NCBI GenBank assembly: GCA_041650615.1
Contig: JBAZKU010000001.1
Location: forward strand, 319,277-383,276
Reading direction: 5' to 3'
Origin: Minisyncoccota bacterium
GTDB taxonomy: Bacteria; Patescibacteriota; Minisyncoccia; Phycocordibacterales; UBA9973
Length of the DNA: 64,000 nt
Shown here: positions 36,329-38,479 of the stretch, piece by piece
Layout: each line of letters begins with the position of its first letter
Position numbering within the stretch: the stretch's first letter is position 1
Notes under the pieces: generated by a model
Databases searched by the model: none
What the model was told of the DNA's origin: nothing
The model's input: the letters and a program-made list of their open reading frames with translations, nothing else
Position numbers and translations under genes: made by a program

Positions 36329-38479
36329 TTATTTTATTAAATCCAAAAATTTTTTCTCGTTTAATATTTTTATACCTAATTTTTGCGCTTCTTTCAACTT
36401 TGAACCAGGGTCTTCTCCTACTACGACATAGGAAGTATTCTTTGAAACAGAACTTGCCACTTTTCCTCCCAGGGAAATAATTTTTTCTTTGGCTAATTCG
36501 CGGGACATTTGGGAAAGAGTACCAGTTAAAACAAGAATCTTTTTATTTAATTTTCCTGCTTTTATTTTTTCGACTTTTTCTATGACTATGCCATTTTTAA
36601 ACAATTTTTCTATGAAAAGCGTATTTTGTTTGTCTCTGAAATAATTGTATACGCTTTTGGAAACGGCCGGACCGATATTTTCTATATTATTTATTTCTTC
36701 AATTTTCGCTTTGGCAAGTTTATCAATTGTGCCAAAATTTATTGCCAGATCTCGCGCCGTTTCTTCTCCCACATGCAGAATACCCAAGGCCCAAAGAAAT
36801 TTGGGAAATGAGATTCTTTTTTTATTTTTTATTTCCTGCACAATATTTTCCGCGCTTTTTTCTCCAAATCGCTCCAGTGGGGCAATATCTTCTTTCTCAA
36901 GAGTAAATATATCCGCTGCATCGGTTATCAGACCTTCATCCTTGAATCGTCTTAAAATTTTGGGACCCAGCTCATAAATTTCAAAAGCGGAAACAAAATG
37001 TTCCAGATATCTTTCGTCTTTTGCTGGACATTTCGGATTGGAACAGTAGTAAGCTACGGAAGTTTCCAAAGTCCTATGAGAAACGGTCTGGCCGGGGTTC
37101 GGGGCCCCGGAGATCCGAGGACCTTTCGAAGAGGAGCTTTGAAAACTTCCGGTATTTCTCTTTTCCACTTTTCCTCCGCAAGCCGGACATTTTAGAACCA
37201 TTTTAAATTTCTCTTCTTTACCAGTACGCATACGAGTCAAGACTTCCACCACTTTTGGGATAACATCGCCCGCTTTTTCTATCACTACAGTATCCCCTAT
37301 TCTTAAATTCAGTCTTTCTATTTGATCCGTATTATGAAGGGTTGCTTTGGATACCGTAGAACCTGCCACAGAAGTCGGCTCAAAAATCGCCAAGGGCGTA
37401 AGTACTCCGGTACGTCCGACATTTATTTTAATATCTTTTACTATTGTAGTAGCTTTTTCAGCTGGATATTTAAAAGCGATAATTCCCCTGGGGTCTTTTC
37501 CTATTACTCCCAGACTCTCAAATGTTTTTGTGTCGTCTATATTGATAACCACTCCGTCTATGCCAAAAGGCAGATTTTCTCTTATTTTTGAAATTCCATT
37601 TATAAATTGAGGTATTTCTTTTAATGAAGAGAAGTTTTTAGAATGTTCGTCAACTATAAAACCGATTTTACTTAATAATTCATGTTTTTTAGAATGCTTT
37701 TCTATATATTTTTGCCATTGCGAGGCAAGACCTAACGCGTTAGGTCTTGCCTCGCCAATCTGAGCAATTTCATAAGCAAAAAAATCAAGATGTCTTTCTT
37801 TTGCCAATTTTGGATCAAGTTGACGCAAAGAACCCGCCGCAGCATTCCTGGAATTTGCAAAAAGCGGTTTGCCTTCTTTTTTGTTCAATTCATTGAGTTT
37901 TTGAAGCACCCGCTTTTTCATAATAGCTTCGCCTCGAACCTCAATTTTGCTTGGATAAGGCGCTTTCAACATAAGCGGAATGCTTCCAATAGTTTTTAAA
38001 TTCTCGGTTATGTTTTCACCAATTTCTCCATCCCCTCTGGTCACTCCCCTAATAAATTTTCCATCTTCATAAATAAGAGAAACCGCCAGTCCGTCAAATT
38101 TTAATTCACAGAAATAATCCAATCGAACGCCGGATGTAAGTAATTTTAAATTTCTTTTTTCCCAGGCAAACAATTCTTCATCCGAAAAAACATTGCCAAT
38201 GGAAAACATTTTTATTTCATGCTTCACTTTTTCGAATTTATCCAAAGGTTTTCCGCCAATCCTATTTTCCGGAGCATTTGGATTATTCAGTGCCGGATGT
38301 TTTTCAAGAATAGATTTCAATTCTTTATTCAGAGAATCATATACATCATCCGTAACTGCCGGAATATCTTTTATATGATAGGCATCTCGCAAACGCGCGA
38401 TTTCACTTCGCAGTTTTTGTACCCGCCTAGAATCGGCGAGGCTGGTCCTTTTTTTATTATTTGCATCAAAATTTTGCAT
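36329..38479 (-). CDS. ligA: NAD-dependent DNA ligase LigA carrying an in-frame insert in its Zn-finger loop
   Basis: Adenylation KxDG motif ([10 protein letters not shown]), OB fold, Zn finger CPACGG...CSNPKC, HhH and C-terminal BRCT; ~42 aa between Cys pairs vs ~13 in E. coli LigA. Confidence 0.93.
37057..37152. mobile_element. GC-rich palindromic in-frame insertion element inside ligA (copy 2 of 2), 96 bp = 32 codons
   Basis: Terminal inverted repeats CGGAAGTTTCCAAAG (37057-71) / CTTTGAAAACTTCCG (37137-51); core GGTCTGGCCGGGGTTCGGGGCCCCGGAGATCCGAGGACCT (37085-37124) shared with pheT; encodes [33 protein letters not shown] inside the LigA Zn-finger loop. Confidence 0.6.

Follow-up and report, generated by a model that had tools for sequence, protein, structure and literature searches.

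The window analysed here, a stretch of 64,000 nucleotides (64 kb) on contig JBAZKU010000001.1 of a Minisyncoccota bacterium, carries on its minus strand the gene ligA, the product of which shares 100% identity with a protein deposited as LigA in a metagenome-assembled genome (MAG) of Candidatus Paceibacterota. Embedded in the codons for the LigA zinc finger is a GC-rich palindrome, termed copy A in the following, that a sequence-only reading of the window had described as a repeated element inserted in frame into the zinc-finger loop. Sequence, coordinates and hairpin fold of this element are borne out by the present analysis. The features of the locus are:

36329-38479, minus strand: ligA, host gene, NAD-dependent DNA ligase of 716 amino acids (open reading frame, ORF, with the full LigA Pfam domain set)
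37028-37189, minus strand: LigA Cys4 zinc finger (C431, C434 ... C479, C484) with the insert at its tip (from codons and alignment to 1DGS)
37057-37152, plus strand: copy A, whole hairpin of 95-96 nt, its own forward strand being the window plus strand and antisense to ligA
37057-37084, plus strand: 5' arm of copy A, consisting of a locus-specific outer stem (37057-37075) and a LigA-site variant of the near-core stem (37076-37084, ATGAGAAAC)
37085-37123, plus strand: conserved, GC-rich, asymmetric 39-nt core at the tip of copy A, sequence GGTCTGGCCGGGGTTCGGGGCCCCGGAGATCCGAGGACC
37124-37152, plus strand: 3' arm of copy A, consisting of the near-core stem (37124-37132, TTTCGAAGA) and the outer stem (37133-37151)

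Copy A codes for roughly residues T443-V475 of LigA and can be written as CGGAAGTTTCCAAAGTCCTATGAGAAAC-39-nt core-TTTCGAAGAGGAGCTTTGAAAACTTCCG(G). Either strand folds into one long hairpin, for which -48.1 kcal/mol were calculated on the plus strand (z = -3.9), a stability that none of 200 shuffled sequences matched. The core has a G+C content of 77% as compared to 36.6% across the window, was found in none of the shuffled windows and is composed of a GGTCT/GGACC outer stem, a GA bulge, a GG/CC step, a 4-nt AGAT bulge and a CCGGGG/CCCCGG stem closing a 7-nt loop. The covariance model of the hairpin family described below matches copy A at 37054-37155 with 75.9 bits (E = 1.6e-15).

Rfam searches with the element at permissive E-values and with the whole window at gathering thresholds returned only two tRNAs and chance fragments. 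The centre of the core (37092-37110, CCGGGGCCCCGAACCCCGG on the minus strand) is near-perfectly matched to part of the Rfam model of the Staphylococcus small RNA S35; with E = 0.08 and 15 bits against a threshold of 69, this is taken as a chance match between GC-rich palindromes. Comparison of the core by eye with the K-turn, the tRNA T-arm, domain V of group II introns and signal recognition particle motifs was unconvincing.

The inserted loop of LigA

The two Cys pairs of the zinc finger are separated by 44 residues, not by 42 as previously counted, as compared to 13 in close relatives lacking an insert and 12 in the LigA of Thermus filiformis (solved structure 1DGS). Both halves of the zinc finger can be aligned with 1DGS, and about 26 query residues between them are without counterpart. 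The hairpin, to which a size of 96 bp or 32 codons had been assigned, measures 95-96 nt and lengthens LigA between the Cys pairs by about 31 residues, with the frame kept.

An AlphaFold model of LigA, built with 94 relatives, has a mean pLDDT (predicted local distance difference test) of 82, with values below 50 confined to residues 1-10, 245-251 and 444-473. The last of these segments is encoded by the element; residues 245-251 stem from a separate, perfect 36-bp palindrome. Since predicted beta strands (residues 437-442 and 473-479) flank the insert on both sides, it is predicted to project from the tip of the zinc ribbon, and in the model it forms a disordered loop that emerges from a fold otherwise predicted with confidence. 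In those LigA relatives that share the reading of copy A, residues encoded by the core are near invariant (entropy 0-0.7 bits) and those encoded by the arms vary strongly (1.9-2.7 bits), despite a prediction of disorder for the entire stretch.

The 36-bp palindrome mentioned above (37720-37755, residues about 243-253) is free of any spacer (GCGAGGCAAGACCTAACG|CGTTAGGTCTTGCCTCGC). The corresponding loop was found in only one other of 120 relatives (P0017), and the palindrome may be the footprint of another hairpin element. At least five further insertion hot spots besides the zinc-finger tip occur in LigA of this clade, namely at alignment columns near query residues 115, 172-174, 242-253, 537, 591 and 692 (relatives P0002-P0120), where peptides resembling translated palindromes recur (QRSDLKSSKRSDLK, PPLLRGEGRGE, PSASHPPLSI..GEVNS and RSDSESLQTRMS). 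The same GC-rich core is present at residue about 250 in P0076, P0108 and P0114.

Two further copies in pheT

The sequence-only reading had regarded copy A as the second of two copies, the other residing in pheT. A core common to both genes is indeed present; a second copy in pheT had been missed, so that the window holds three copies, one in ligA and two in pheT:

24317-26233, minus strand: pheT, phenylalanyl-tRNA synthetase beta chain, host of copies B and C (ORF; Pfam B3_4, B5 and FDX-ACB on orthologue L009)
25934-26008, plus strand: copy B, residues about 76-100 near the N-terminus of PheT (core 25948-25985; 80.4 bits)
24608-24691, minus strand: copy C, residues about 515-542 near the C-terminus of PheT (core 24630-24667; 89.1 bits)

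When the cores of copy B and copy A are aligned, 38 of 40 positions are equal and one of the remaining two is a 1-nt gap; copy B is read in a different frame. Copy C is more diverged and lies 1.3 kb from copy B in the opposite orientation, its forward strand being the window minus strand and sense to pheT. Thus, frame or orientation of reading differs among all three copies, one of which translates as NGLAGVGDPGNRGP, and the opposite orientations of copies B and C exclude any simple rule relative to the direction of replication. With the family covariance model the three copies score between 75.9 and 89.1 bits, and a scan of the window with this model yielded, beyond these three, only generic hairpins.

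Two more palindrome-derived stretches are present in pheT (25187-25210 and 25049-25084). One is a hairpin with 10-bp arms that encodes EPACAGRF; the other encodes PARNASHNDAGG, and the near-identical peptide PARNASHSDAGG constitutes an insert in the LigA relative P0092, which suggests a further element family common to several genes.

A family of hairpins in Patescibacteria

A scan of one genome per GTDB species with the pattern GGTCTGGCYGGGG-N8-20-CCGAGGACC retrieved at least 118 stretches, and the counts of copies, hosts and settings given in this and the following sections refer to the matches listed. About 110 of them stem from AT-rich MAGs assigned to Nomurabacteria, Paceibacterota or Patescibacteria by their labels; a few bear the name Saccharibacteria, two carry obviously mis-binned labels and the remaining seven are chance matches in GC-rich genomes. 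All true copies found lie in Patescibacteria MAGs, for which labels and binning are imperfect. As the pattern fixes 22 core bases, only the core positions that it leaves unspecified and the census of LigA proteins presented below are free of ascertainment bias. A scan of viral contigs for the core gave a single 31-nt match with a short centre that is probably due to chance, Rfam contains no family corresponding to the element and searches of the literature brought up no account of such elements in the candidate phyla radiation (CPR)/Patescibacteria.

Alignment of 113 copies on the core (alignment A2) revealed a nearly invariant, GC-rich and asymmetric core of 37-39 nt at the tip of a hairpin with arms of 20-30 nt each. 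The median length of the whole hairpin is about 95 nt, with an overall range of about 80-100 nt and a clustering at 93-99 nt. The core starts with GGTCTGGC and contains a GGTCT/GGACC outer stem, a GA bulge, a GG/CC step, a 4-nt bulge (AGAA or AGAT) and a C[C/T]GGG(G)/(C)CC[G/A]G inner stem with a loop of 6-7 nt. It is followed on both sides by a semi-conserved stem, cTTTTnGAAy-core-TGAnAAAAg, with a tandem G.A mismatch and covarying n positions, while the outer 10-20 nt of the arms vary from locus to locus yet stay complementary. The outer 15-nt ends of copy A, CGGAAGTTTCCAAAG (37057-37071) and CTTTGAAAACTTCCG (37137-37151), which exhibit 93% complementarity and had been taken as terminal inverted repeats marking the ends of the element, belong to this locus- or subfamily-specific outer stem that only has to pair.

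Pairing within the family is pronounced. In the alignment, 81.1% of the cells are paired as compared to 64.8% in column shuffles, none of 500 of which reached this value, and to at most 61% when partners were slid against each other. Double-sided changes amount to 905 with 380 expected, the covariation score is 0.405 vs. 0.142, and one inner-stem pair (columns 41-57), for which the search pattern fixed only one side, occurs as C-G in 64 and as U-A in 49 copies and is never broken. Compensatory changes are also evident between orthologues, both in the 5' arm of copy A (L004, L040, L061, L095) and in the arms of copy C (L002, L026, L088).

Genic and intergenic copies

Copies crossed by an ORF that runs at least 45 amino acids beyond them on both sides were regarded as genic. 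This holds true for 75 of 118 copies (64%), all of which are in frame and free of stop codons; 69 of the 75 use three of the six possible readings, the same three that are also seen in the window. Host genes encode proteins of DNA replication and repair (PolA in 17 species, LigA in 11, UvrD, UvrA, RecJ, UvrC and UvrB) and of tRNA metabolism and translation (PheT, IleRS, LeuRS, GatA, MnmA, CCA-adding enzyme, KsgA, YchF and TGT) as well as a class-V aminotransferase and a ComM-like ATPase. The same nucleotide core recurs in at least 18 gene families other than LigA and in spacers.

In the 43 non-genic copies, the hairpin appears to occupy a short spacer between different complete genes that are usually co-directional, e.g., between those for a methyltransferase and an exonuclease, UvrA and UvrC, FtsE and FtsX, Map and an unknown protein, or 6PGD and G6PD. 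Genes split by the element, as expected for an intron, were looked for in five pairs of flanking ORFs, and each pair turned out to be distinct complete proteins. Four non-genic copies are neighboured by recA (L014, L021, L066, L082), the start of which lies 12-19 nt from the hairpin where measured.

The two settings differ in the composition of the arms. Genic arms have a G+C content of 40% and are open in a median of three out of six frames, whereas intergenic arms have a G+C content of 18%, are open in 0-1 frames and pair better, with a median arm score of 34 as compared to 26. The higher G+C content and the open frames of genic arms thus appear as a signature of selection for translatability inside genes. 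As genic copies are invariably in frame and stop-free, which would be needless if they were excised or bypassed, we infer that the copy in ligA is translated. Selection of the hairpin as an mRNA structure was considered and rejected, since the sense strand exhibits no excess of G:U-type mismatches (35 vs. 46, p = 0.27).

The bases that specify the near-invariant residues of the LigA loop are also kept where other genes read them in a different frame, so that the constraint acts on nucleic acid and not on peptide. Intergenic copies and copies read in three different frames have the same core bases in common, which places the constraint on the core at the level of nucleotides. The extra loop is no feature of the protein as such, given that these nucleotides are present in other genes and frames, in both orientations and between genes.

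The LigA site in related bacteria

In the 120 closest LigA proteins, the zinc-finger loop occurs in several states. It is bare, i.e., 13 residues long, in nine cases, comprises 15-28 residues in 38 and could not be parsed in six. A recognizable core is present in 26 proteins, 21 times in the reading of the window and five times in the opposite orientation, and other long inserts, among them the unrelated palindrome-derived peptides ISSGLTLPGVPGGTH, KRSDLKNSKRSDL and TTPDPSSTRRGG, are found in 41. The insert of the window recurs in frame at the same position of LigA in L004, L034, L040, L054, L061, L076, L095, L098 and L120 as well as in the proteins P0002-P0004 and P0011. The concern that the region might be misassembled is settled by these data: at least ten independent assemblies from unrelated studies share the insert, which excludes a chimera.

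On the DNA level, locus L162 exhibits an empty LigA site. The sequence of L161/P0044 equals that of the window minus exactly 75 nt (37070-37144, F446-T470), with the junction located within a TTT direct repeat and a 20-bp palindrome, CGGAAGTTT-GG-AAACTTCCG, left behind, which is best read as a deletion footprint. L121 carries another hairpin that consists of arms only. Decayed cores are found in L122 and L125, where GGTCCTYGG...CCAGACC is kept and the inner GC stem is lost. In L163, the element is again of the LigA type, has homologous arms and unchanged near-core flanks and is inverted relative to the gene, and inversion in place has also occurred in polA, where L056 is flipped as compared to L013 and its relatives. 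Among LigA orthologues with intact cores, the arms differ at about half of their positions with pairing kept (e.g., CGGAAGTTTCCAAAGTCCT in the window vs. CGGGGGCGTGGGAAGTCCC in L004), and the C-terminal PheT copies of the window, L002, L026 and L088 likewise possess divergent yet pairing arms.

The near-core flanks deserve separate consideration. Their usual order is TTTTCGAAT-core-TGAGAAAA, whereas TGAGAAAY-core-TTTCGAAG is found at the LigA site. That TGAGAAA and TTTCGAA have changed places around the core as compared to the pheT copies, as pointed out in the sequence-only reading, is real. In both arrangements GAAA pairs with TTTC next to a tandem G.A mismatch; they differ in the place and polarity of the A/T helix. 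LigA-type flanks were seen only at the LigA site and are inherited there in both orientations. They are exact in eight of the 11 LigA copies of the genome scan and near-exact in L034, while L054 has a different left flank; two other LigA copies, L003 and L110, have ordinary flanks. Inversion of the core, of the core with its flanks or of the whole hairpin was tried as an origin, and none of these yields the LigA arrangement, which is treated as a site-specific lineage variant. The swapped flanks had been taken as a hint at a modular or recombining element. For the flanks themselves this is not supported, as they represent an inherited variant that no simple inversion produces; the recombination that is documented consists of the in-place inversions of whole hairpins in L163 and L056. 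In a contig of 519 nt (L099), a left flank of the typical kind and a right flank of the LigA kind meet at the shared core, probably as a result of chimeric assembly.

Arms, ends and folding strand

Certain arm sequences recur together with the core in different genes. One arm family (GCCGAGCCTGTATGCTTTTGCGAAT...) is present in the genes for LeuRS (L008), PheT (L009) and IleRS (L069, L084, L106), another one (AGCAAATCTAGAGAATTTTCGAA...) in those for PolA and UvrB. These shared arm families argue that the whole hairpin is the unit that spread. An origin of the arms by copying of nearby DNA, i.e., inverted target duplication, was rejected, because the best match within ±300 nt (11.58 of 18) is practically equal to that of arms from other loci (11.54). 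Identical 3-mers flank the hairpin in ten cases with 2.8 expected, GAA being the most common, a count that is inflated by orthologues and affected by fuzzy hairpin boundaries and thus gives a weak hint at a 2-3-bp duplication or a target preference.

Mismatches in the arms are distributed unequally between the strands. A G:T mismatch is tolerated in the strand that folds, and A:C is its mirror image on the other strand. On the element forward strand (GGTCTGG...GGACC), 91 G:T as compared to 40 A:C mismatches were counted, and this bias holds in genic copies of both orientations as well as in non-genic copies. Weighted by arm cluster it amounts to 25.9 vs. 7.1 (sign test over arm clusters, p = 2e-4). 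In 109 of 113 copies, the better fold is likewise that of the forward strand. Taken together, mismatch bias and better folding indicate that the element has its own sense strand, which is independent of host transcription.

Other repeats in the window

Two long hairpins (10341-10427 and 55671-55776) have near-perfect arms of 25-27 bp ending in ...CTTTT/AAAAG... and thereby resemble the inner stem of the family. Their centres of 33 and 56 nt are different and not GC-rich, and neither centre is present in 160 fetched loci. More perfect or near-perfect palindromes with arms of 16-26 bp are located at 52870-52913, 40088-40143, 16038-16069 and 56314-56361. A 27-nt sequence, AATAATTTTTAGAAAGCCTTGCGCAGG, at 30149-30175 has a 96% reverse complement 6 kb away at 36300-36326, where it adjoins the ligA stop codon just downstream. 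A tandem array of about 9-11 copies of the 9-nt unit AGTTGAAGG extends over 47179-47287, with weaker echoes at 58906-58960, and is probably a coding repeat of a surface protein.

Interpretation and alternative explanations

Based on the combined evidence, we consider it probable that 37057-37152 is a copy of a family of mobile palindromic hairpins of about 80-100 nt that resides in Nomurabacteria/Paceibacterota (CPR). The whole hairpin has spread between genes, with copies surviving in spacers and at permissive points within genes. After insertion, it is inherited vertically, its arms drift by compensatory changes and it can be inverted in place. Decay takes the form of a lost inner stem or of an internal deletion that leaves short coding palindromes behind. 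A folded single strand of DNA or RNA may be the form that is moved or maintained, and the core may be recognized by an enzyme acting in trans. The element could represent selfish or neutral DNA, the tolerance of which would be due to the flexible loops, rich in Gly, Pro and Ser, that result from its readings.

Several points weigh against this interpretation. Target-site duplication is only hinted at. Neither a transposase nor a recombinase was found among 57 neighbours of the 43 non-genic copies, which are ordinary housekeeping genes, and no autonomous parent element was seen. The conservation of the core is in part a matter of ascertainment by the 22 bases that the search pattern fixes, and translation of the insert is read from frame and stop statistics only. 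Furthermore, long-term conservation of the core at orthologous sites is unlike that of a purely selfish, dead insertion and leaves room for a function on the level of the host.

Such a function is the substance of a rather unlikely alternative, according to which the core is a strand- and structure-specific signal of the host for DNA uptake, recombination, repair, replication or replication restart that is retained in or beside genome-maintenance genes. The cell or a dedicated enzyme would use the core, and the variable arms would merely present it in ultra-small bacteria that are pictured as dependent on competence. The core being near invariant at orthologous sites where the arms of the same copies are almost randomized would be accounted for, just as the identity of the conserved bases in three reading frames and in intergenic copies and a better-folding strand that is set by the element and not by host transcription. 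Hosts and neighbours are, moreover, rich in PolA, LigA, UvrA/B/C/D, RecJ and the ComM-like protein, with recA beside four copies, and a bias toward genome-maintenance genes has been reported for the uptake sequences of Neisseria and Haemophilus, to which the hosts of the element can be likened. However, known uptake sequences occur roughly once per kb, while the density here is low, with three copies per 64 kb. In addition, copies B and C are opposed, so there is no fixed orientation relative to replication, and the core has decayed or been deleted in many lineages. The apparent bias in gene categories may be due to nothing more than the length and weak expression of the genes concerned.

Quite improbable is a scenario in which mobility is confined to the core and about 10 nt of adjoining stem per side, which would insert into the tips of pre-existing hairpins and thereby account for locus-specific arms. 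It would fit the palindromes consisting of arms only, both at the LigA site (L161, L121) and in coding DNA of the window (37720-37755, 25187-25210), the window hairpins at 10341-10427 and 55671-55776 that combine similar ...CTTTTT/AAAAAG... inner stems with different centres, and the several unrelated insert types that occupy the LigA loop. On the other hand, identical arm families are found together with the core in several genes, which means that arms and core travel jointly, the length of the whole hairpin clusters around 93-99 nt, and the clean 75-nt deletion of L161 together with flanks shared with filled relatives fits loss better than a state before insertion. A very stable GC-rich hairpin in an AT-rich gene could also be excised from the message or skipped in translation like an intron or a mitochondrial byp and hence be absent from the protein. 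The mobile GC clusters of yeast mitochondria behave as removed or bypassed elements and lend this idea support by analogy; it is nevertheless very improbable, given that 75 of 75 genic copies are in frame and stop-free, that no checked non-genic copy splits a gene, that arm G+C content and open frames of genic as compared to intergenic copies mark selection for translatability and that Rfam yields no match to a ribozyme or intron family. Repeated cores can give rise to chimeric contigs, and L099 does join two flank types; still, an assembly chimera or an ordinary lineage-specific loop with accidental palindromy is hardly credible for copy A in view of the same in-frame LigA insert across assemblies from unrelated studies, the presence of the core in spacers and in no fewer than 18 further gene families and the predicted disorder of the loop.

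Comparison with known palindromic elements

Hairpins in coding genes of AT-rich, compact genomes are known from fungal mitochondria, where GC clusters, double-hairpin elements and byps are likewise GC-rich. Ribosomes skip byps, for which an in-frame position is not required, and the fungal elements are organellar. The coding palindromes in mitochondria of Nematomorpha are perfect hairpins with both arms coding, in which structure and reading frame are kept together (PMC6649704). They are organellar as well, their arms encode conserved protein regions and a shared mobile core is absent (PMC6649704). The element described here differs from these organelle hairpins in adding a disordered loop with a shared core.

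The closest functional resemblance is to the Rickettsia palindromic elements (RPE), or "protein coding palindromes" (Ogata et al., 2000, 2002; summarized in PMC10969869). In both cases, short palindromic repeats occur in reduced, AT-rich genomes of obligate symbionts or parasites, many of them inserted in frame into unrelated housekeeping genes and others located between genes, the extra peptides fit the protein fold and no transposase is known. The frequency of RPE in Rickettsia has been considered unusual and their existence in other prokaryotes a matter of speculation (PMC10969869, a review from 2024). The hosts of RPE are Alphaproteobacteria as opposed to Patescibacteria, and RPE are about 100-150 nt in length as compared to about 95 nt here. 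Further differences are the conserved, GC-rich, asymmetric tip with arms conserved in pairing only, the reading of one element in three frames and both orientations, and the documented in-place inversions and palindromic deletion footprints. The element works like RPE and is not filed as a member of that family; membership is unlikely because the host phylum differs.

Repetitive extragenic palindromic (REP) sequences and the bacterial interspersed mosaic elements (BIME) built with them, which are associated with REP-associated tyrosine transposases (RAYT), and miniature inverted-repeat transposable elements (MITE) such as Correia, ERIC and BOX resemble the element in being small, non-autonomous, interspersed repeats that form hairpins (PMC3733652, PMC10969869). 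According to current views, a strand-specific enzyme acts on REPs in the form of single-stranded hairpins, in agreement with the strand bias observed here. However, REPs are 20-40 bp long, extragenic and equipped with a GTAG or CGTC tag, while the element measures about 95 nt, is intragenic in 64% of the matches listed and carries no such tag; assignment to the REPs was rejected on the grounds of length, location and tag. MITEs have terminal inverted repeats that are conserved between copies as well as clear target duplications, whereas the ends are not conserved here, and a MITE in the strict sense was dismissed because the outer 10-20 nt of the arms differ between loci. Neither a RAYT nor an insertion sequence was seen among the 57 neighbours of non-genic copies. 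Genic copies that are always in frame and stop-free and the lack of an Rfam match speak against an intron or translational bypass element, and the density of known DNA uptake sequences is not reached, with three copies in 64 kb and no new ones in about 180 kb of related DNA.

Implications

The element, the mobility of which we infer from sequence, is distinguished by a conserved asymmetric tip combined with arms that only covary and by an unusually clear record of inversion, decay and footprints. Repeated cores of this kind can break or mis-join MAG contigs, which matters for assembly and annotation, and the LigA zinc-finger Pfam domain remains undetected in many relatives with a long loop insert. 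If the interpretation given here is true, insertion of such hairpins would explain part of the variation in length of CPR housekeeping proteins and of their "missing" Pfam domains.

With at least 110 copies, with filled, empty, inverted and decayed alleles and with clear covariation, the family is tractable. It can be used for asking how hairpins enter genes, how proteins tolerate them and which machinery recognizes a folded single strand in organisms not yet open to genetic manipulation. In-frame, protein-coding palindromes have so far been treated as a peculiarity of Rickettsia, and the hairpins described here constitute an independent and widespread case in the CPR, bacteria that likewise have tiny genomes and depend on hosts. 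Coding palindromes would then be a recurrent outcome of genome reduction and not a one-off.

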